This document shows positions 27,795 through 54,506 of a stretch of DNA of 64,000 bases, piece after piece. Position numbers and translations under genes: made by a program. The DNA lies in NCBI GenBank assembly GCA_963755915.1, contig CAVWLP010000002.1:4352001-4416000 (forward strand), in the 5' to 3' direction. This DNA comes from an uncultured Phycisphaerales bacterium (lineage in GTDB: Bacteria > Planctomycetota > Phycisphaerae > Tepidisphaerales > Tepidisphaeraceae). Numbering within the stretch: the stretch's first letter is position 1; each line of letters begins with the position of its first letter. The notes under the pieces were generated by a model. That model did no database searches, had not been told where the DNA came from, and saw only the letters and a program-made list of their open reading frames with translations.

Positions 27795-29931
27795 CTATTT
27801 CAGACTTTCCAAAATCGCATTCTTCACATTCGTCGGCACCGGCGCATACCGCAACGGCTCCATTACCGAGCTGGCCCGGCCCGTGCTCATCGAACGAAGT
27901 TCGGTCGTGTACCCGAACATTTCGCTCAGCGGAACTTCCGCTTCCACGATCCGCGTGTTGCCACGCTGATCGCTGTTGACGATCATCCCGCGGCGGCGAT
28001 TCAAATCGCCGGTGACGTTGCCCACGAATTCCTCGGGCGTCGTCACGACGACTTTCATGATCGGCTCCAGCAGCGTCAGCCCCGCCTTCTGGCACGCCTC
28101 TTTGAACGCGATCTGCCCCGCCAGTTCGAACGCGATCTGCGAGCTGTCCACCGGGTGATAGCTGCCGTCGGTCAGCGTCACTTTCACGTTGATCAGCGGA
28201 TAATTCGCCAGCACGCCCGTCTTGGCGGCCATGCGGGCGCCGTACTCGATCGACGGGATGTATTCCTTGGGAATCGACCCGCCGAACACCTTGTTTTCGA
28301 ACGCGAAGCCGTCTTTCCAGCCCCATTTCTTGAGGGTCTCGGGATCGACGCCAGTGCCGTTGAACGGCTCGATGTTGATCGTGCAGTCGCCGTACTGGCC
28401 GCGACCGCCGGATTGCTTGACGTGCTTGCCGCGAATATGGCTCGCCGAGCCGATGATCGTTTCCTTATACGCCACCTTCGGCCGGCCGACGTTCACCTCG
28501 ACCTTGTGATCGCGCGTGAGCTTGATTCCGGAGGATTTCCAGGTGAAGCTCGCCCATGCCGGCGATGATGGTCTGGCCGGTTTCTTCATCGTAATTGGCC
28601 TGGAACGTCGGGTCTTCGCGCTTGAGGGTTGTGAGCGCCTCGCCGAGTTTCTGCTTGTCGGCGGCGGTCTTGGGCTCGATGGACATGCTGATGACCGGCT
28701 CGGGGAAAGTCGGCCGTGTCCAGGATGATCGGATGATCCTGGTCGCAAAGCGTGTCGCCGGTCAGAGCATCCTTGACGCCGATACACGCGACGATGTCGC
28801 CGGCCTCGGCAACGTCGATAGGATTTCGGTCGGCGGCGTGCATCTGGAACATCCGGCTGATGTTCTCGCGCTTGTTGCGGTTGCTGTTGAGAACGCGGCT
28901 GCCCTTTTCGAGCCTGCCGCTGTAGACGCGAACGTAGGTCAGATCGCCGTGCTGGTCGTTGACGATTTTGAACGCCAGGCCGCAGAACGGCTCATCCGGA
29001 TTCGGATGCCGCTCGATGATCTTCTCCGGGTCCTTCACGTCGTGCCCCTTGATGGCCGGCATATCGATCGGGGCGGGCAGATAATCGATGACGCCGTCGA
29101 GCAGGCGCTGAACGCCGACGTATTTCAGGGCCGACCCGTAGAACACCGGATGCAATTTGAAGCTGATCGTGGCCGCGCGCAGGGCCTTGCGCAGCTCGTC
29201 CTCGGTCGGCTCCTGACTGTTGAGATATTTCTCCATCAGGTGGTCGTCGGTCTCGGCGACTTTTTCGATCAGATCGTGACGCCACTTTTCGTAGCGCTCT
29301 TTTTCGTCCGCGGGGATCGGCTTTTCGATGATGGTCATGCCCCGGTCCTTGTCGTCGCCCGACGTTGTAATACAGGGCCACGCCGCGGATCAGATCGATC
29401 ATTCCTTTGAATGTGTTGCTCTGTCCGATAGGAATTTGCACGGCCACGGCCGGAGCGCCAAGCCGTTCGCGGATGGAATTGAAGCTGAAGTCAAAATCGG
29501 CGCCGACCTTGTCCATCTTGTTGATGAAACAGACGCGCGGAACGTTGTACTTGGTGGCCTGCCGCCAGACGGTTTCCGATTGGGCTTCGACGCCTTCCTT
29601 GCCGTCGAACACAGCCACCGCGCCGTCGAGCACGCGCAGCGAGCGTTCCACCTCCGCGGTGAAATCGACGTGGCCGGGCGTGTCGATCAGGTTGATCGTG
29701 TATCGTCTCGCCGTTGCGGTCCCACGGACAGGTGGTGGCGGCGGAGTTGATCGTGATGCCGCGCTTCTGCTCTTCCTCGTCAAAGTCCATGACGGCGGTG
29801 CCTTCATGTACCTCGCCCATCTTGTGGATCTTCCCGGTGTAATAGAGGATGCGCTCGGAGACGGTGGTTTTGCCCGCGTCGATGTGGGCGGCAATGCCGA
29901 TGTTACGAATTTTGGAAAGATCGCGAGCCAT
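27795..29931 (-). CDS. fusA: Elongation factor G (several frameshifts); stand-alone copy outside the rpsL-rpsG operon
   Basis: [43 protein letters not shown] and [10 protein letters not shown] motifs. Confidence 0.97.
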
Positions 29932-30035
29932 AAAAATTTCCTGCTACTCCTGGAGAAATCGATATCGACAGTACGACCCACCGCCGACCAAAGTTTGCCC
30001 AAACCCACACCTGCGGGCCGTCGAAAGAGCGAAGT

Positions 30036-30063
30036 AATGTAATCGTAGTCCGACAATCGTCAA
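30036..30063 (-). promoter_or_regulatory. Possible sigma70 promoter of fusA
   Basis: TTGACG-N16-TACATT about 105 bp upstream of the ATG. Confidence 0.4.
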
Positions 30064-40725: not shown

Positions 40726-42215
40726 TAATCCCGTTCGGCACGCAGGCTTCATCGGAGCATTCCAAAGCTGTGGAGGACGCGAAACAATTGAAGCTTAGAT
40801 ACTTTTACTTTCCCCTGCTGCACGCCGGCGTCCGCAAGAGCGCAGCATCAACCGCGAGGTCTCCGCGGCGACGGATTCCCCTTCAGTTTACTCCCAGTTT
40901 TTTCAAGGCCTCCGCTCTTGCCCTCAGCTTAATCCCGGTGTTATCCGGCTTGTTCAGGAATCGAAGCACGTCCTGTTCCTCGGCCAGCCCCAGCAGATAC
41001 CAGCCGATCATGTTCCGCATCGCCTTGTTCGGCTTCCTGCCGCTGATCAGCTGAATCAGCACGCAGACGATCAGCGCGCAGTGGATTTGGATGTCGATCC
41101 CCTCCTGGCGTTGGCTCAGCAGGTGACGCATGCCCAGCAGTTGCTTGAAGATCCGGAAGAACAACTCAACGGTGTAGCGGTACAGATAAATCAGGGCGAT
41201 CAATTCCGCCGGCAGGTCCAGCAGGTTCGTGTACAGGATGATCAGGTCCGTCGGCTTGTTGCCGCTGCGCGTGCGGCGCGGATGGGGTTTCACCTGCACT
41301 TCCACCCGTCGCACCACCCTATCCGCCGCCGTCTCCAGGCCGTCGAGTTTCACCAGCGCGTCTCGCACCACGCCGCCGTCCAATGCTTCCTGTGAAAGCA
41401 ATCGTTCTTCAAACAGCTCAAACACCGAGTTTTCCGCGGCCCGCATCACAAAGGAGCTTTGCGCCGCGGCGATGTCCGCAAAGAGGCTCCGGTCGGCGTA
41501 GCCGCCGTCTCCTACATAGCACCGTCCTGCTTCCAGGCTGCGCCGCAGGACGTTGTTTTCACGGTTGGCCCCCGCGTTGCGAGCGCCAGTGCGGTCGAGG
41601 CGATGGACTTTGAACGTCTCCAGATCGAATTGAACGTGCAAACGCCAGCCATAGACCGCTTTCCCGTCCCGGGAGGTGTTGTAGCGCGCATCGATGCCGC
41701 AAGCGGATTTGGCCAGCCGACTCAGCGCCGTCAGCACCGTCCCGTCGACCAGCGTGATCGCCTGCCCAAAGTCCGCAAGACGCGGATCGGGCGCCTGGGG
41801 CAGTTCCCCCGCCAATTCCTCAATCAGCGGCGTCAAACGCCCCGGCTCGAACACCCGAACCGATTCAGAGAAACTGCCCACGGAAAAACGCTTAATTCCC
41901 AGCGCCTTGGCCACCTTGGGCAGTTCAGCAACCTCCTGAAGATCCCGCAGGGATTGGATCAGCGGATTCCAGGTGTAAAGCAAAACCAGCTTGCAATAAT
42001 CGTCGAAGTGAAGCTGGCGGTTCCCGGCTCGATCCCGCTCACAGCCCACATCCCGCAGCGTGGGCAGCAGCGCGAAGACGCGCCGCAGATGTCCGAGGCA
42101 CAGGATCTCTTTTTCCTTCAGTCTTGCCTGCACGTCCGGCAGCATGCCATAAAAAGATCAAAGGCGCAATCTCAATATCTTGCTGCTTGCGCGAACCCCG
42201 TGCCGAACGGGATTA
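40726..42215 (-). mobile_element. IS4-family insertion sequence, copy 1 (1490 bp)
   Basis: 17-bp perfect terminal inverted repeats TAATCCCGTTCGGCACG; DDE transposase inside. Confidence 0.92.
40883..42145 (-). CDS. IS4-family DDE transposase
   Basis: LVDGT, VGDGGY and YLYRYTVELFFRIFKQ (YREK motif). Confidence 0.95.
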   Translation of the reverse strand: MLPDVQARLKEKEILCLGHLRRVFALLPTLRDVGCERDRAGNRQLHFDDYCKLVLLYTWNPLIQSLRDLQEVAELPKVAKALGIKRFSVGSFSESVRVFEPGRLTPLIEELAGELPQAPDPRLADFGQAITLVDGTVLTALSRLAKSACGIDARYNTSRDGKAVYGWRLHVQFDLETFKVHRLDRTGARNAGANRENNVLRRSLEAGRCYVGDGGYADRSLFADIAAAQSSFVMRAAENSVFELFEERLLSQEALDGGVVRDALVKLDGLETAADRVVRRVEVQVKPHPRRTRSGNKPTDLIILYTNLLDLPAELIALIYLYRYTVELFFRIFKQLLGMRHLLSQRQEGIDIQIHCALIVCVLIQLISGRKPNKAMRNMIGWYLLGLAEEQDVLRFLNKPDNTGIKLRARAEALKKLGVN

Positions 42216-42455: not shown

Positions 42456-43944
42456 TAATCCCGTTCGGCACGGGGTTCGCGCAAGCAGCAAGATATTGAG
42501 ATTGCGCCTTTGATCTTTTTATGGCATGCTGCCGGACGTGCAGGCAAGACTGAAGGAAAAAGAGATCCTGTGCCTCGGACATCTGCGGCGCGTTTCGCGC
42601 TGCTGCCCACGCTGCGGGATGTGGGCTGTGAGCGGGATCGAGCCGGGAACCGCCAGCTTCACTTCGACGATTATTGCAAGCTGGTTTTGCTTTACACCTG
42701 GAATCCGCTGATCCAATCCCTGCGGGATCTTCAGGAGGTTGCTGAACTGCCCAAGGTGGCCAAGGCGCTGGGAATTAAGCGTTTTTCCGTGGGCAGTTTC
42801 TCTGAATCGGTTCGGGTGTTCGAGCCGGGGCGTTTGACGCCGCTGATTGAGGAATTGGCGGGGGAACTGCCCCAGGCGCCCGATCCGCGTCTTGCGGACT
42901 TTGGGCAGGCGATCACGCTGGTCGACGGGACGGTGCTGACGGCGCTGAGTCGGCTGGCCAAATCCGCTTGCGGCATCGATGCGCGCTACAACACCTCCCG
43001 GGACGGGAAAGCGGTCTATGGCTGGCGTTTGCACGTTCAATTCGATCTGGAGACGTTCAAAGTCCATCGCCTCGACCGCACTGGCGCTCGCAACGCGGGG
43101 GCCAACCGTGAAAACAACGTCCTGCGGCGCAGCCTGGAAGCAGGACGGTGCTATGTAGGAGACGGCGGCTACGCCGACCGGAGCCTCTTTGCGGACATCG
43201 CCGCGGCGCAAAGCTCCTTTGTGATGCGGGCCGCGGAAAACTCGGTGTTTGAGCTGTTTGAAGAACGATTGCTTTCACAGGAAGCATTGGACGGCGGCGT
43301 GGTGCGAGACGCGCTGGTGAAACTCGACGGCCTGGAGACGGCGGCGGATAGGGTGGTGCGACGGGTGGAAGTGCAGGTGAAACCCCATCCGCGCCGCACG
43401 CGCAGCGGCAACAAGCCGACGGACCTGATCATCCTGTACACGAACCTGCTGGACCTGCCGGCGGAATTGATCGCCCTGATTTATCTGTACCGCTACACCG
43501 TTGAGTTGTTCTTCCGGATCTTCAAGCAACTGCTGGGCATGCGTCACCTGCTGAGCCAACGCCAGGAGGGGATCGACATCCAAATCCACTGCGCGCTGAT
43601 CGTCTGCGTGCTGATTCAGCTGATCAGCGGCAGGAAGCCGAACAAGGCGATGCGGAACATGATCGGCTGGTATCTGCTGGGGCTGGCCGAGGAACAGGAC
43701 GTGCTTCGATTCCTGAACAAGCCGGATAACACCGGGATTAAGCTGAGGGCAAGAGCGGAGGCCTTGAAAAAACTGGGAGTAAACTGAAGGGGAATCCGTC
43801 GCCGCGGAGACCTCGCGGTTGATGCTGCGCTCTTGCGGACGCCGGCGTGCAGCAGGGGAAAGTAAAAGTATCTAAGCTTCAATTGTTTCGCGTCCTCCAC
43901 AGCTTTGGAATGCTCCGATGAAGCCTGCGTGCCGAACGGGATTA
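42456..43944 (+). mobile_element. IS4-family insertion sequence, copy 2 (1489 bp), inverted relative to copy 1
   Basis: Same terminal repeats; appears identical to copy 1 except for a 1-bp deletion near 42594. Confidence 0.92.
42526..43787 (+). CDS. IS4-family transposase with a 1-bp frameshift near the N-terminus (sequencing error or pseudogene)
   Basis: Protein identical to copy 1 on both sides of the indel. Confidence 0.85.
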
Positions 43945-47481: not shown

Positions 47482-49479
47482 GTGAATCTCCTCCCCCCCA
47501 TCGACCTCGCCTGGCAGCACCAGCAGGCCGGCCGCCTCAACGAGGCCGAAGCCATCTGCCGCCAGCTTCTCACCCACGACCCCAACAACGCCCCCGCCCT
47601 GCATCTGCTGGGCGTCATCGCCAAGCTCACCGGCAATGACGACGCCGCCCTTGAGCTTCTCGGTCGCTCGGTCGCCGTTGCCCCCAACGACCCCTTCGCC
47701 CAAAGCAATCTCGGCAACCTTCTTCGCGACAAAGGGCGTTTCGACCTCGCCCTGGCCGCCTATCACAAAGCCATCGCGCTTGACCCCAATTTCGCCGCGG
47801 CCTTCTTTAACCTGGGAATGTGCCACTGGCAGATGAACCAGGACGACCACGCCATCGCCAATCTCCGCCAGGCAATCCACATCTCCCCCGGCATGACCAA
47901 CGCCTGGTTCGCCCTCGCCACCGTCCTCAAGGAGGCCGGGCAGATCGAGCCTTCTATCGCCGCCTGCCAGAAGGCGATTGAACTCAACCCCAACGCCGCG
48001 GGGTACCACTACTCGCTTGCCGACGCATACGAACTCAAATCTCCCCCCTTGCACGACCAGGCCATCGCCGCCTACCGCCGCGCGATCGAGATCGATCCCA
48101 ATTACTCCGAAGCCCGCTGCGACCTCGCCGTCGCCCTCGCCGCCCTGGGCCGCGCCCCCGAATCCGAAGCCGCCCTCACCGACGCCGCCGCCCACGGCGC
48201 CGCCCCCGCCCTCCTCGCTCTCACCCGCGGCCGAATCCTCCACCGCGCCGGCCAATCCGAAAAAGCGATCGAATTTCTCCGCCGCGCCGCTCAGCTCGAT
48301 CCCGATTCCTGGCGCGCCTGGTTCAACCTCGGCAACGCCCTGCGCGAAACCGGCCGCTTTTCCGAAGCCGCCCAGTGCGTCCCCCGCATCCTCGCCCGCC
48401 GCCCAAATTCCTCCCACGCCTACGGCCTGCTCTCCAGCCTCGGCGCCGATCTCGACCCCTCCGAAATCTCCCGCCTCTCCCAATCCCTCGACGACCCCCA
48501 GCTCTCAAACGCCGATCGCGCCGCCCTAGGCTTCGCCCTCGGAAAATTCCTCGACAAATCCGCCCGCTATGACGAAGCCTTCACCCACTTCACCCGCGCC
48601 AACGCCGCCGCCCGCGATCTCCGCCGCGCCGCCGGCGAACGCTACAGCAGCGAACAATTCTCCCGCCACATCGACGACCTGATCGCCCTCACCACCCCCG
48701 ACTTCTTCACCCGCTGGCACACCGCCGGCGTCCGCTCCGATCTCCCCGTCTTCATCGTCGGAATGCCCCGCTCGGGAACCACCCTGATCGAACAAATCGC
48801 CGCCAGCCACCCCCAAATCTTCGGCGCCGGCGAGCTCAATGACATCCCCACCCTCGCCGCAAAATTAAATTTCCCCCACTGTTCCCCCGATCAAATCACC
48901 CAGACCGCTCAGCATCACCTCGACCACCTTCGCTCGCTCGCCCCCTCCGCGGCCGGCGTCATCGACAAGATGCCCGCGAACGTCGAGCATCTGGCCCTGA
49001 TCGCCGCCCTTTTCCCCGAAGCCAGGATCATCTTCTCCCGCCGCGACCCGCGCGACACCTGCCTCTCCTGTTTCTTCCAACCCTTCCTCGAAGGAAATCT
49101 TTTCAGTTTCGACCTGGCCGACTGCGCCCGCCATCACGCCCAGATCGACCGCCTCATCGAGCATTGGAAATCAGTGCTGCCCCTGCGCATGCTGGAAGTC
49201 CAATACGAAACCCTGGTTCAGGACCCCGACCCCCAATCCCGCCGAATCATCGAATTCCTGGGCCTTCCCTGGCACCCCGCCTGCCTGGATTTCCACCACA
49301 CCCAGCGCCCCATCCACACTGCCAGCGCGTGGCAAGTCCGCCAGCCGCTCTACAATCACTCCATCGGCCGGTGGAAAAATTATGAGAAATATCTTGGCCC
49401 ACTTTCGGACGCCCTGCGCCTTACCCCCTCTCCCGGTACTCCGGGAGAGGGCAGGGGTGAGGGCCTTGGAAAAATCTGA
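47482..49479 (+). CDS. TPR-containing sulfotransferase
   Basis: TPR array; VFIVGMPRSGTTLIEQI, IDKMP, RDPRDTCLS and TASAWQVRQP motifs. Confidence 0.92.
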   Translation: MNLLPPIDLAWQHQQAGRLNEAEAICRQLLTHDPNNAPALHLLGVIAKLTGNDDAALELLGRSVAVAPNDPFAQSNLGNLLRDKGRFDLALAAYHKAIALDPNFAAAFFNLGMCHWQMNQDDHAIANLRQAIHISPGMTNAWFALATVLKEAGQIEPSIAACQKAIELNPNAAGYHYSLADAYELKSPPLHDQAIAAYRRAIEIDPNYSEARCDLAVALAALGRAPESEAALTDAAAHGAAPALLALTRGRILHRAGQSEKAIEFLRRAAQLDPDSWRAWFNLGNALRETGRFSEAAQCVPRILARRPNSSHAYGLLSSLGADLDPSEISRLSQSLDDPQLSNADRAALGFALGKFLDKSARYDEAFTHFTRANAAARDLRRAAGERYSSEQFSRHIDDLIALTTPDFFTRWHTAGVRSDLPVFIVGMPRSGTTLIEQIAASHPQIFGAGELNDIPTLAAKLNFPHCSPDQITQTAQHHLDHLRSLAPSAAGVIDKMPANVEHLALIAALFPEARIIFSRRDPRDTCLSCFFQPFLEGNLFSFDLADCARHHAQIDRLIEHWKSVLPLRMLEVQYETLVQDPDPQSRRIIEFLGLPWHPACLDFHHTQRPIHTASAWQVRQPLYNHSIGRWKNYEKYLGPLSDALRLTPSPGTPGEGRGEGLGKI

Positions 49480-49546
49480 CGCACACACGGCCCTCACCCG
49501 CGCGGACTTCGTCCGCTTGCCCTCTCCCGGAGTACCGGGCGAGGGG
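49425..49546. repeat. Inverted pair of CCCTCTCCCGG-TACT-CCGGGAGAGGG palindromic elements
   Basis: First copy overlaps the sulfotransferase 3' end; further copies at 53197-53235 and, degenerate, at 54387-54427 and 40678-40704. Confidence 0.85.
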
Positions 49547-50575: not shown

Positions 50576-51043
50576 TCACACCACCGCCTCCACCGCCCTC
50601 CGACTCCCCTCATCCATCTCATCCATCCTCGGCAACTCATAAATCGTCCCATCCGCATCCTTCACCGTAAACCTACCATCGGCCATAAACCGGATATCCT
50701 CCCGTTCCTGCACCCGAAAATCCGCCGGCCCGCGGTCCGTTTCCACCGTCCACTGCTGAAACCCAAACCGCACATCCACCGCCATCACCCGCGTAATCCG
50801 CGGGATCATGCTCGTCCCCGCCAGATAATTCTCGACGATTCCCCGCAGCCCCTCGGAAAGCTTCCCCAGATCGTCGATCATCACCAGTTCCTTCCCCTCC
50901 TTGCTGCGAATGCTGACGTTCCTCTCCGGCGAAGACCACGGAAACGACCGCCGCACGCGCACGTCCACCACCTCCTCCACCCCCGGCCGCACCAGCACCA
51001 TTCGCCCTTGCGGATCCACCTTCAAATCAAACGCCTCGCTCAT
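50576..51043 (-). CDS. DUF1854 domain protein
   Basis: RRSFPWSSP...VSI, PRITRV, WTVETDRG and DADGTIY motifs; RBS GAGGAG. Confidence 0.8.
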   Translation of the reverse strand: MSEAFDLKVDPQGRMVLVRPGVEEVVDVRVRRSFPWSSPERNVSIRSKEGKELVMIDDLGKLSEGLRGIVENYLAGTSMIPRITRVMAVDVRFGFQQWTVETDRGPADFRVQEREDIRFMADGRFTVKDADGTIYELPRMDEMDEGSRRAVEAVV

Positions 51044-51051
51044 AACTCTCC

Positions 51052-53477
51052 TCACCGCAGCGCCAACTGCGAGTTCAGTTCCACTTGCGTCTTAAAGAGC
51101 TTCGCATACACGCCCCCCTCCTTGTCCACCAGTTCCCGGTGCGTCCCCTGCTCCACGATCTTGCCGCTTTCCAGCACCACCAGCCGGTCGGCGCTCGTCA
51201 ACGTGCTCAGCCGGTGCGCAATGGCAAACGTCGTGCGCCCCTCAACTAGACGGTTCAGCGCCTGCTGAATTTCCCGTTCCGTCTCCGTATCGACCGAGCT
51301 GGTCGCCTCATCCAGGATCAATATCCGCGGATTGTGCAGGATCGCCCGCGCGATGCTGATCCGCTGCCTCTCCCCGCCCGACAGGCTCTGCCCGCGCTCC
51401 CCCACGAGCGTGTCATATCCATCCGGAAATCCCACGATAAAATCATGCGCGTTGGCCGCCCGTGCTGCCGAGATCACCGCCTCCTCGCTCGCCTCCGCGT
51501 TCCCATAGCGGATATTGTCCGCGATCGTCCCGTGAAACAGGTACGGCTCCTGCAAGACCAGCCCAATTTGCCTCCTCAAAAACTTCACGTCAAAATCGCG
51601 AACGTCAATCCCATCGATCAAAATCTGCCCCTCCGTCACGTCATAAAACCGGCACAGCAAATTCACCAGCGTGCTCTTCCCGGCCCCGCTTTTTCCGCAC
51701 AGCCCGATCATCTGCCCCGGCTCCGCCGACATCGAAACCTCGCGCAGCGCCGGCTGCGCCCCCTCATAACTGAACGAAACATTCCGAAACTCAACCCGCC
51801 CCTCCAGCCGATCCTTCACCACCGCATCCGCCCGCGAATAAACGTCCGGCGGTGTATCCAGAATCTCGAAAATCCGCTGCGCACTCGTTGCCGCCCGCGT
51901 CACCATCCGGTTGCTGTTCGCCAGCTCCATGATCGGCTGATAGAACTGCCACACAAACTGCGTAAACGCGATCAGCACCCCCAGCGTATACCGCGGATCG
52001 TTCGGATGCTTGATCACCAGCCACCCCCCGATCACCCAGATCAGCAGCGCCCCAAACCGCATCAACCCGCTGACCCACGGCGCCAGCGCCGTCCAGACGA
52101 TGTGAATTTCGCTCGCCTTGTCGGTATATTCATTGCTCCGCCGATCAAACCGCCGGATTTCCTTCTGCTCATTGGCAAACGCCTTCACCACCCGCACGCC
52201 CGGCAGCGCATCCCCGACCACCGCGCTCATCCGCGAATAGTAGGTCCACAATCTTCCAAACATCCGCTGCATCTTCATGCCGCGCTTGTATGTGAGTACC
52301 CCCAGCACCGGCAGTGGCAGCAGCGCGATCGCCGCCAGCTCCCAGTTCATCTTGAACATCATCGCCGCGATTGCCGCGATCATTGCCACGTCGCGAATCA
52401 GATCGATCGATCCAAACACGATGAAATCCCACAGCCGGTCCGTGTCGCTGGTCACCCGCGTAATCAGCGACCCGGTCCTCCGCTTGGAAAAATAGCGCGG
52501 GCTCAGGTCGTGCAGATGCTCATACACCTTGTGCCGAAGATCGGCGGTGATCCTCTCCCCCATCAGCGCCAGCGTGCGCAGGCGAAGCGCGTTCAGCCAT
52601 TCGCTGACGACCACCACGATCAGCAGCGCCGACGACCACACCACCAGCTCGTGCACCCGATATCCGAGCGTCATCGCGGCCGCGCTGGCGTGCGCCGGCG
52701 CGATCGCCCGGTCCACCAGTTGCCGGTTCATCCACGCCGGTATTGCCGCCATTGCAGAAACCAGGATGGTCAGCACCAGCGCAAACCGCGTCCGCCACTT
52801 ATACGGCTTGGCCACATCCAGCAATCGCGACAAAATCTTCCGCTTCGCCGCGCACTGCGGGCACACCCCTTCGGCATACGATGGAATTAGCTCCCCGCAC
52901 TTCGGGCAATGCGCCTTTCGCTCCGCCTCCCGCTCAACCGCATCCAGCCACTCCGGCCTCCCCTCCGTCTTCTCCTTCGAATCGTCCGCCCGTCTGATCT
53001 GCCTCTGCAATTTCCGGTTCAGCCGCGTCATCGTCGTCCGATGCCGCCGCGAATACCGCAGTTCCCCCGCCGCCTTCCCCTCAGACACGATCACCAGCCG
53101 GTCCACCCCCAGCCCCTCCACAATCCGGCTCTCCTCGATCTTCTCCAAAGCAATCGACCGGCGCCTTCTCTCCCCCCACCGGACGCCCCTCTTTCCCCCT
53201 CTCCTGGTACTCCGGGAGAGGGTTGGGGTGAGGGCCGTGAATTCTCCTCATAGCCCACACCATCGCCCCCCACCCCAATCTGCACCAACTCCCGATCGGT
53301 GAGCACCACAAACTGCCGCGCAAACCGATTCCGAGAATCCAAATCGAACTCTGACCACCCCAAAATCGTCTGCCCCGCCAGCTCTCCATCCAGCCGCGCC
53401 GCCACCGCCGGCGGCAAGCCGCCCGTCCCCACCACTTCCATTTCCATCTCACTCGTTGTCCCCTGACTCATCGCCAT
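51052..53477 (-). CDS. ABC exporter (N-terminal accessory domain, Zn-knuckle, TM and ATPase domains) of the DUF1854-associated type; frameshift in a G-run near 53175
   Basis: CPKCG...CPQC, GKSGAGKST, LSGGERQR, ILDEATSS and IAHRLST motifs. Confidence 0.9.
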
Positions 53478-53481
53478 CTCC

Positions 53482-53520
53482 AAAAAAAAGCCACGCGGTC
53501 TTGATTCAAGGCCGCGTGGC
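53482..53520 (-). terminator. Intrinsic terminator (attenuator) immediately upstream of the ABC gene
   Basis: GCCACGCGGCCTTGA-A-TCAAGACCGCGTGGC followed by T8. Confidence 0.85.
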
Positions 53521-53546
53521 GGGAATTTCCAGTTCTATGGGCAGAT

Positions 53547-53648
53547 TCAGCCTCGATCCGCCTCCCGCCTGCGCACCGTAGCAACCATTTCCGAGCGGCT
53601 GCGCCGCCTGATGGTTACTGCAAAGTTGTGCGTCGAGTGGTTGAGCAT
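53547..53648 (-). CDS. Putative Arg-rich leader peptide MLNHSTHNFAVTIRRRSRSEMVATVRRREADRG (33 aa)
   Basis: AAGGAGGAG RBS upstream; stop codon 26 nt before the terminator; absent from the ORF track because it is short. Confidence 0.65.
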   Translation of the reverse strand: MLNHSTHNFAVTIRRRSRSEMVATVRRREADRG

Positions 53649-53678
53649 GTTACGGATATTTCTCCTCCTTGAGCCGGA

Positions 53679-53707
53679 ACAATGCCCGAACTCTCAGGCG
53701 TTGTCAA
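53679..53707 (-). promoter_or_regulatory. sigma70-type promoter of the leader/ABC operon
   Basis: TTGACA-N17-CATTGT. Confidence 0.6.
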
Positions 53708-53764
53708 CAACAATCTTCCCCAATTTTGCCCGGCAGCACCCATTTCGTTATCGTCTCCGCCCAC

Positions 53765-54373
53765 ATGCACCATTCTATTCCCTCTCTTCTCCGCCGGCTA
53801 CTTCTCCCCCTCGCCGCCCTACTCTGCACCGCCTGCGCCGCCACAGACTCCCCGCCCCAAATCACCACCCTCGAATCCCAGGTCACGACCATCCTCGCCC
53901 AGATCCAGCAGCAGGACCCCAACATCCAAGCCCAGATCGACCGCTCCTACGGCTTCGCCCTCTTCCCCTCCATCCTCAAAATCGCCGCCGGCGTCGACAT
54001 CGGCTACGGCCGCGGAATCGTCTTCCAGCACCACCGCCAGATCGGCGAAGCCTCCGTCCTCCAATACAACGTCGGCGCCGCCATCGGCGGTCAGCAATAC
54101 TGGCAGCTCATCCTCCTCCCCGAAAAAACCGACCTCGACGACCTCCGCGACGGCCCCACCCTCGCCGTCGGAAACGCCTCCGGAATCTTCATCCATTCCG
54201 GCTCGGGTTTAACTCTCGCCGTCCCCAGCGGGTCCGCCTCCATGGTCCAACCCACCTCCGGTCTCATGTTCGAAGTAGCCATCGGCGGCCAAACCTTCTG
54301 GTTCCAAAACCTGAAGCCAGGTGAATGGAACTACTCCGCTACCGTCTCCTCACCACTTCTTGCCCAACGATAA
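53765..54373 (+). CDS. YSC84-related lipoprotein
   Basis: Lipobox CTAC; GFALFPSILK...GYGRG; GAAIGGQQY; GLMFEVAIGGQTF. Confidence 0.75.
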   Translation: MHHSIPSLLRRLLLPLAALLCTACAATDSPPQITTLESQVTTILAQIQQQDPNIQAQIDRSYGFALFPSILKIAAGVDIGYGRGIVFQHHRQIGEASVLQYNVGAAIGGQQYWQLILLPEKTDLDDLRDGPTLAVGNASGIFIHSGSGLTLAVPSGSASMVQPTSGLMFEVAIGGQTFWFQNLKPGEWNYSATVSSPLLAQR

Positions 54374-54458
54374 CCGGCAAGTATTTCCCCCACCCACGGT
54401 AATCCGGGGGAGGGTTAGGGAGGGGGTTTTTCCGAATGACGTGTTAAATCCTCATCCC

Positions 54459-54506
54459 CTACTGCCCCACAATATCCTTCCTCGTCCCCTCAATGATCCC
54501 CATCAG
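54459..54506 (-). repeat. 48-bp displaced duplicate of the globin gene 3' end
   Basis: 46/48 identical to 54778-54825. Confidence 0.9.

Follow-up and report, generated by a model that had tools for sequence, protein, structure and literature searches.

The 64,000-nt window analysed here (positions 4,352,001 to 4,416,000 of contig CAVWLP010000002.1, assembly GCA_963755915.1, from an uncultured Phycisphaerales bacterium) carries on its minus strand, directly before the genes for an ATP-binding cassette (ABC) exporter and a DUF1854 protein, a short leader that we read, with somewhat more confidence than doubt, as a ribosome-mediated transcription attenuator of three RNA elements. The leader contains a promoter-like sequence, an upstream open reading frame (uORF) and a hairpin followed by a U-run; these elements are conserved in related loci, and the end of the uORF has the potential to pair with one arm of the hairpin.

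Read 5′ to 3′ along the minus strand, the leader begins with the hexamers TTGACA (−35; 53702–53707) and CATTGT (−10-like; 53679–53684), separated by a 17-nt spacer. From the sequence reading, 16 of 17 leaders have TTGACA at the equivalent −35 site, where L051 reads TTGACT, and the −10-like hexamer of the relatives is CATCTT, CATTGT or CATGTT at equal spacing. A Shine-Dalgarno (SD) sequence, AAGGAGGAG (53662–53670), lies 13 nt before the ATG (at 53648) of a uORF of 33 codons plus TGA (53547–53648), which encodes the 33-residue peptide MLNHSTHNFAVTIRRRSRSEMVATVRRREADRG with eight Arg residues. Within the uORF, RNAfold predicts a hairpin that we call P0 (53580–53619), which holds the RRRSR codons (−22.1 kcal/mol, z = −2.81, for codons 2–24), and near the end of the uORF lies what we call the X block, GUGCGCAGGCGGGAGGC (53560–53576), the putative 5′ strand of an antiterminator and, in the alignment, a degenerate form of the consensus CCGCGUGGGCGGGAGGC (encoding P-R-G-R-E-A). 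A second hairpin found by folding, P2 (GGCGGAUC...GAAUCUGCC, 53540–53562), has the uORF stop codon inside it. Next come UUCCCG and CCACGCGG (53512–53525), the terminator 5′ arm with its upstream extension, which are common to the antiterminator and the terminator, and then the predicted intrinsic terminator (53482–53520), consisting of a hairpin of −21.7 kcal/mol at 53520–53490 (GCCACGCGGCC...GACCGCGUGGC) and a U8 run at 53489–53482. The SD of the ABC gene (GGAG, 53481–53478) and its likely ATG at 53471 follow at once (53469–53481); ATG candidates exist at 53477 and 53471, and alignment with relatives picks the latter (MSQGTTSE in the window, MTQGTTSE and MAQGTASE in L002 and L003). The promoter, SD, uORF with eight Arg codons and hairpin with U8 before the ABC start are thus all present as an earlier note on this DNA had described them. 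Folded whole, the 221-nt leader has z = −2.08.

The upstream neighbour (53765–54373, plus strand) is divergent from the ABC gene, and the hairpin is therefore a 5′ leader element and not the 3′ end of another gene. Because of this divergence, and because the U-run abuts the ABC SD, the operon would depend on read-through of the terminator; the distance from the end of the U-run to the ABC start, about 10 nt, is too short for a promoter. A simple consensus scan flagged neither the promoter, whose −10 agrees with TATAAT in just 3 of 6 bases, nor the hairpin, which fails the loop-length rule of the scan. Both misses are effects of the rules, and the scan was given no weight for or against. An Rfam cmscan of 52500–54500 with E up to 10 gave only chance matches, to miRNA and snoRNA models, far below gathering scores. 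As judged from sequence comparison, it is mainly through conservation in 16 other loci that the leader features appear to exceed chance.

DUF1854 homologues place the lineage in the Tepidisphaeraceae, Planctomycetota. One genome per species was scanned with a 22-sequence DUF1854 alignment, and the 110 matching stretches yielded 52 loci (designated by L numbers), all from Phycisphaerae/Tepidisphaerales. The ABC N terminus was found by tblastn in 32 of the 52, and the ABC start region is also present in L036 and L049, which gave no N-terminal match; the denominator for leader counts is accordingly the 34 loci in which the ABC 5′ end is present together with upstream DNA. The leader is present in 16 of these 34 orthologous loci, which makes 17 copies counting the window.

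In the window and in 17 loci, a hairpin with the lower stem CCACGCGG...CCGCGTGG and a T-run precedes the ABC start; these loci and the 64-kb window contain no further copy. The window and the 52 loci (594,940 bases) were then searched with a covariance model of the 3′ module of the leader, and it recovered 17 full copies (65.9–94.2 bits) and a hairpin-only copy in L027 (35.9 bits); there was no further plus-strand match above 19 bits, and the remaining matches were reverse-strand readings of the same palindromic hairpins. In L027 (2059–3105), the CCACGCGG hairpin and T-run end a 328-aa gene, there is no uORF, and the ABC start is about 105 nt downstream; the terminator seems to have been kept there after a rearrangement.

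In a quick tree of the ABC proteins, the leader is scattered over several separate clades, the deepest (L051) included. This suggests, as far as sequence comparison goes, an old element that was retained in some lineages and repeatedly lost in others. The tree had 37 rows, in which the frameshifted L001 and L050 were represented by their longest aligned piece and from which L021 (168 aa) and L042 (37% identity) were omitted, and it was used solely for this coarse point. In most of the leaderless loci inspected, the ABC gene is preceded, at about 100 nt, by a divergent SDR-like gene, and a TTGACAAA promoter takes the place of the leader (L010, L012, L013, L032–L034, L039, L041 and L044). The leader-bearing loci found are all in metagenome-assembled genomes; the sole cultured relative recovered, Fontivita pretiosa (L012), has no leader.

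None of the 17 copies departs from the terminator core CCACGCGG/CCGCGUGG, whereas the loop and flanking pairs vary, and a hairpin with a U-run is present in every leader at −16 to −28 kcal/mol. The eight pairs that never change are bordered by pairs that covary (GC/AU/GU and CG/UA), and the covariation score of 0.164, compared to 0.110 in shuffles, was reached by none of 500 shuffles. RNAalifold on a MAFFT alignment recovered the terminator alone.

The uORF is closed by the X block (consensus CCG CGU GGG CGG GAG GC), the first 8 nt of which are the terminator 3′ arm. Because the X block repeats the 3′ arm, it has the potential to form an antiterminator helix, which we call P1, with the 5′ arm. 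In L002, L003, L004 and L008, the helix is extended, and CCGCGUGG(G)CGGGA pairs with UCCCG-CCACGCGG at −25 to −27 kcal/mol, a value reached by 0 of 400 controls (random 37-nt windows of the same locus, used for all duplex comparisons). Across the leaders, the X:5′-arm duplex energies range from −10.8 to −26.9 kcal/mol, and the duplex was matched by at most 11 of 400 controls in 14 of 17; the L017 duplex was equalled by 29 of 400. In the window, RNAduplex gives −19.9 kcal/mol in blocks of 4 and 8 bp, a value reached by 11 of 400 controls. In the alignment columns of this helix, 82.4% of the cells are standard pairs, compared to 23–50% when the partner columns are slid. The antiterminator pairing drawn for the window in the earlier note has the potential to form, to the exclusion of the terminator, and as drawn it is a degenerate form of a much stronger one conserved in relatives. 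A strand with two alternative partners should be invariant, as CCACGCGG/CCGCGUGG is.

For transcripts truncated after the 5′ arm, folding predicts P1 with P2 enclosed in it in 15 of 17 leaders; for full-length transcripts, it predicts the terminator. P2 has GGGAGGC as its 5′ arm and a pyrimidine-rich 3′ arm, with the uORF stop codon in or beside the loop in 15 of 17 per-sequence folds. Its arms differ by clade yet stay complementary (GGGAGG/CCUCCC in L007, CGGAGGUUGGA/UCCAGUCUUCG in L022 and GCGAAGG/CUUUCGC in L035); the per-sequence folds are modest (z = +0.9 to −2.4) and the loops align poorly. A P0-like hairpin in the uORF is predicted in most relatives (mean z = −1.25, n = 17), and its sequence is not conserved. 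The gap between the stop codon and CCACGCGG is 26–33 nt in all copies. When ribosome footprints were masked in the folding, the 5′ arm stayed paired upstream without a ribosome or with a ribosome in about the first two-thirds of the uORF, and it was freed only with the P-site within about five codons of the X block.

The uORF itself appears from its conservation to be translated. All 17 leaders have an ATG-started ORF of 25–39 codons that reads through X in one common frame, compared to 2 and 1 leaders with such an ORF in the two other frames, and differences in length are whole codons (35 in L002 and 25 in L003; one extra codon in L018). By eye, GGAG-type SD-like sites stand about 7–13 nt before the uORF ATG in relatives, and the uORF of L035 looks leaderless. 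The long spacing between the SD and the ATG in the window, raised previously as a caveat, recurs in this range in relatives and does not speak against translation.

The leader peptides have a mean column identity of 29%, and close pairs differ at many residues. A few positions are kept across deep clades, namely [H/Y/D]-N-F at codons 7–9, a basic residue about five positions later, in many leaders a Trp, and P-R-x-[RW]-[ER]; the Asn and Phe codons change synonymously (AAC/AAT and TTC/TTT). Upstream of the X block, relative to long open frames, Met is enriched 2.9-fold, Trp 2.3-fold, Asn 2.2-fold, His 1.7-fold, Phe 1.6-fold and Arg 1.23-fold, and Asp, Glu and Gly are depleted. Trp is present in 11 of 17 leaders and absent from the window copy. 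A role for queuosine through early His, Asn, Tyr and Asp codons was considered and rejected; Asn and His are enriched, but Tyr is at 0.77-fold and Asp at 0.30-fold. A reading of the uORF as a bacteriocin or ribosomally synthesized and post-translationally modified peptide (RiPP) precursor was also rejected, given the highly variable peptide and the lack of a peptidase domain in the Pfam scan of the ABC protein.

In the mechanism that we propose, transcription would start at TTGACA/CATTGT and would have to pass the terminator just before the ABC start. In naked RNA, the X block would pair with the terminator 5′ arm once that arm is made, and the resulting P1, enclosing P2, would block the terminator, allowing RNA polymerase to read into the ABC and DUF1854 genes. 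A ribosome keeping pace with the polymerase, on the X block or near the stop codon, would mask X, leaving the 5′ arm to pair with the 3′ arm and transcription to terminate. Slowed, arrested or uninitiated translation of about the first two-thirds of the leader would thus raise expression, and the input would be the progress of translation instead of a codon run of one amino acid. We consider general translation stress or a peptide-sequence-dependent stall more likely to be the signal than a shortage of arginyl-tRNA. In the window copy, an Arg-rich stretch lies in the sensitive part, and arginine shortage could be one possible inducer.

Several points weigh against this mechanism. We infer from sequence and folding that transcription ends at the hairpin, that ribosomes read the uORF and that the switch works in the direction given. 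No compensatory change in P1 was found across the 17 leaders, so that the helix is supported by conservation and energy and not by covariation; P1 shows no covariation because the 5′ arm never varies. The switch looks weakened in the lineage of the window: next to the −19.9 kcal/mol of the window, the duplex of its closest relative, L001, is only −15.4 kcal/mol, with 110 of 400 controls as good. The duplex of the deep-branching L051, at −10.8 kcal/mol, was equalled by 268 of 400 controls. The window copy may be decaying, with a degenerate X block and an ABC gene out of frame; the X block of L001 is more degenerate still, and the window copy is not the best representative of the leader family. 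The folding model predicts that P1 can re-form with a ribosome on the last one to three codons, and as an equilibrium model it takes no account of the kinetics of folding or the bulk of the ribosome. In 12 of 17 leaders, the X core is predicted to have an upstream partner, at non-homologous places, as long as the 5′ arm has yet to be made, and in these models such pairing may act as a trp-like anti-antiterminator that makes the default state OFF without translation; at equilibrium, the antiterminator wins over the upstream pairing. Last, the conserved [H/Y/D]-N-F and basic residue are unexplained by a pure sensor of translation speed.

The ABC exporter gene (51052–53471, minus strand) is in two frames in the window, an N-terminal domain at 53471–53091 and a core ORF at 51052–53148 (frame open from 53247) with Pfam ABC_membrane and ABC_tran domains. 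In relatives, the protein is a single ORF of about 770–835 aa. The window gene goes out of frame next to a repetitive extragenic palindrome (REP)-like palindromic insertion in the linker after the N-terminal domain (53091–53300, minus strand); L001 has the same insertion in frame, without 14 nt that are present in the window. The frame change represents either a pseudogene or an assembly error, and the latter is possible because other window genes also look split. The REP-like element, a 26-nt palindrome (CCCTCTCCCGGAGTACC.GG.GAGGG), has three copies in the window, at 49426–49451 (minus), 49520–49545 (plus) and 53197–53222 (minus), where none are expected by chance, and it translates to a recurring PSPGTPGEG-type peptide at several ORF ends. 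Domains of an EF-G-like protein are divided over two minus-strand ORFs (27795–28787 and 28992–30056; GTP_EFTU, and EFG_IV with EFG_C), a division that points to either a frameshift or an assembly indel. The ORFs at 40883–42145 (minus) and 42510–43787 (plus) are both DDE_Tnp_1 transposases, opposite in orientation and identical in Pfam score, and are probably two copies of one insertion sequence. The divergent neighbour of the ABC gene is a lipoprotein-like ORF with no Pfam match and a weak match to the SYLF/BPSL1445 family of NCBIfam (E = 5.8e-8), far below the cut-off.

The DUF1854 gene (50576–51055, minus strand) overlaps the ABC stop codon, and its product matches PF08909 (E = 5.4e-34) with 117.3 bits, above the gathering threshold of 26.8. 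The best NCBIfam matches of the two proteins are NF052233 and NF052234, the cyanophycin metabolism-associated ABC transporter and DUF1854 protein, respectively, and both fall below the curated equivalog cut-offs: 666.6 bits vs 880 for the ABC protein (682.2 for the intact L002 protein) and 110.5 bits vs 150 for the DUF1854 protein. According to the available text of 10.1101/072470, DUF1854, an ABC transporter and two cphA-like genes are cofit in two beta-proteobacteria, and export of an amino-acid polymer is proposed there for this set. No cphA-like (Mur-ligase/ATP-grasp) ORF was found in the window, among 33 scanned of its 35 ORFs of at least 230 aa, or among 25 large non-ABC ORFs of the 52 related loci. 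The pair is not always linked, as no ABC gene was found within the fetched 5–12 kb in 13 of the 52 DUF1854 loci (L006, L009, L011, L014, L016, L019, L020, L023, L025, L026, L030, L043 and L052), five of which were rechecked at E up to 10.

What slows the ribosome is the point on which the two nearest alternatives turn, both of which keep the RNA switch. The one that we rank second, a possibility on the unlikely side, is that the trigger is a sequence-specific arrest by the nascent peptide, whose conserved residues ([H/Y/D]-N-F, then basic residues, often also Trp) would act in the exit tunnel and stall the ribosome early in response to a small molecule, either a metabolite, possibly a basic amino acid, or a ribosome-targeting drug, as in TnaC, SpeFL and the Erm leaders. 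It would account for the few peptide positions kept in deep clades amid free neighbours, with synonymous changes in the Asn and Phe codons, for the depletion of acidic residues and Gly and the excess of Trp, and for the fixed distance of the motif from the start, which is far enough upstream of X to spare it. The length of about 33–35 aa, an I-R-R-like stretch near residues 10–16 and the hairpin at the 3′ end of the uORF loosely recall SpeFL as the available text of 10.1101/604074 presents it, but this likeness is one of a few-residue motif. An ABC exporter under leader-peptide control by translation inhibitors has a precedent in bmrB-bmrCD (PMC4191407, in the part available). Overall, however, the peptide is weakly conserved even between close pairs, the spacing between the N-terminal motif and the C-terminal block is inconstant, differing by about 8–21 residues, the window copy has no Trp, and some conserved codons may be kept as RNA partners of X, as the model pairing of CUACCACG with CGUGGUAG in L018 illustrates, which confounds the peptide signal. 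The suggestion that R-x-R motifs might stall the ribosome in response to antibiotics is also countered by the conserved R-G-R ("+x+"), which is inside the antiterminator strand, where a stalled ribosome would mask X, free the terminator arm and terminate transcription. A narrower version, in which [H/Y/D]-N-F and the basic and Trp residues trap a small molecule in the tunnel early in translation and the arrest is read by the terminator and antiterminator instead of by Rho, seems to us doubtful to a slightly greater degree; candidates for the ligand would be a basic amino acid and a product that the exporter handles. If true, a phylum that has received little study would have a SpeFL/TnaC-like sensor whose output is new, and this would point to a substrate of the ABC/DUF1854 exporter.

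The arginine attenuator proposed in the earlier note, which had taken a shortage of Arg-tRNA as the sensed signal, is improbable by comparison. In that scheme, ribosomes stall at codons 14–18 when charged tRNA-Arg is scarce, the antiterminator is left free and a cyanophycin-linked exporter is induced. The window uORF is truly Arg-rich, at 24% compared to 7.9% in 12 confident window genes, and it uses twice the rare codon AGG, which makes up 6.7% of the Arg codons of those genes; ribosome masking indicates that a stall at codons 14–18 would leave X free; and by eye, about 14 of 17 leaders have Arg at an aligned position after a hydrophobic stretch. The relatives, however, give a different picture. 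The RRRSR run occurs in the window and L001 only, and the nearest clade mates have NRVWPRIG, NRVWPLVG and NRVK. Upstream of X, the number of Arg residues per leader ranges from 0 (L050) and 1 (L008 and L022) to 7 (L017), tandem Arg is found in 5 of 17 leaders, and no amino acid forms a conserved run. Arg makes up 12.1% of the 396 residues upstream of X and 9.8% of the long open frames of the loci, an enrichment below those of Met, Trp, Asn, His and Phe, and the best-conserved basic position is Lys in L022. In the window, the Arg run coincides with the GC-rich GGCGGC/GCCGCU stem of P0, a sequence for which one of the three frames would give an Arg-rich reading. The conserved P-R-G-R Arg codons argue against Arg sensing because they are in the antiterminator strand, where stalling should favour termination. 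The cyanophycin connection, on which the idea also drew through the family matches and the cofitness of DUF1854 with cphA, is real elsewhere but weak here, with both scores below their cut-offs and no cphA-like ORF among those scanned. The comparison of orthologues thus bears out the uORF and the pairing and not the Arg codons upstream of X. Arginine sensing as the logic of the family is not supported by these sequences, and for the lineage of the window it is a minor possibility. The Arg-rich leader of one genome resembled an amino-acid sensor until the relatives were read, which is a caution for readings of this kind.

Two further explanations dispense with the switch. The uORF could be an independent small-protein gene, for example, for a cationic peptide handled by the exporter, with a leaky terminator setting a fixed ratio of peptide to transporter. 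The conserved ORF, SD and terminator would fit, as would the L027 hairpin that terminates an ordinary 328-aa gene without a uORF, but this leaves unexplained why the 3′ end of the ORF repeats the terminator 3′ arm in 14 of 17 leaders, why the spacing from stop to terminator is fixed and why the peptide is otherwise variable, and the ABC protein has no Pfam peptidase domain; we consider it very improbable. Least credible of all is that the palindrome CCACGCGG...CCGCGTGG is a protein-binding site, either a DNA operator of a dimeric regulator or a bound RNA hairpin, with an incidental uORF. An 8-nt inverted repeat conserved in sequence without covariation is what such a site would look like, but there is a third, same-sense copy inside a frame-conserved ORF, and the U-run is always 3′ of the hairpin. 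The operator form was rejected, since the half-site spacing varies from 5 to about 15 nt, which fits a hairpin loop and not a dimer operator.

In the classical leader-peptide attenuators of E. coli (trpL, hisL, leuL, thrL and pheL), the position of the lead ribosome decides the outcome. The attenuator that we favour shares with the trpL/hisL type a short leader ORF, a terminator before the first gene and an antiterminator that shares the terminator 5′ arm. The trp/his-type geometry claimed for it earlier thus holds for the candidate translated leader, the terminator and the antiterminator, but there is no conserved codon run of a single amino acid. It also differs in that the 5′ strand of the antiterminator is inside the last codons of the leader ORF, that no conserved anti-antiterminator was found in the 17 leaders, so that an untranslated leader is predicted to read through, and that an exporter is regulated and not a biosynthetic operon; the leader matches no Rfam leader family. 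A literature search found no description of a leader-peptide attenuator in Planctomycetota, and a search on DUF1854 found nothing on its regulation. The proposed mechanism is of a known kind, and within it the leader constitutes a new family. One 8-nt sequence serves three roles in it, as antiterminator strand, shared arm and terminator arm, which makes for a compact switch, and knowing what slows leader translation would tell when cells need the ABC/DUF1854 exporter.

The ABC and DUF1854 genes are adjacent here as in the beta-proteobacteria covered by the available text of 10.1101/072470, whereas in the present loci the scores for the NF052233/NF052234 pair are below the cut-offs, no cphA-like gene was found among the ORFs scanned and DUF1854 is unlinked in 13 of 52 loci. 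A parallel in gene arrangement is bmrB-bmrCD of Bacillus subtilis, in which, going by the part of PMC4191407 that was available, a small ORF stands directly before the gene for an ABC exporter, stem-loops of alternative form occur along with an intrinsic terminator, induction needs translation of the leader, and induction by antibiotics was shown. It belongs to another phylum and has no sequence likeness to the planctomycete leader, and its terminator is inside the leader coding region as described in that text, whereas the planctomycete terminator is 26–33 nt past the stop codon. A parallel in the leader itself is speFL/orf34, which has about 34 codons and, near positions 12–13, consecutive Arg codons that slow the ribosome, and in which the leader ORF has its 3′ end inside a hairpin, as here; arginine and ornithine levels both feed the decision there (PMC6386406 and 10.1101/604074, from their available portions). 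A uORF sensing Arg codons would not be an undescribed class, as had been supposed, given the pausing at Arg codons reported for the Salmonella speF leader orf34 in the accessible part of PMC6386406. The two systems differ in that speFL, by the same partial accounts (10.1101/604074 and PMC6386406), works through Rho and arrest at the stop codon with a defined HIRRXXH pocket, whereas the planctomycete leader has a predicted intrinsic terminator, a stall at its stop codon should not induce, and its basic motif is only loosely similar.

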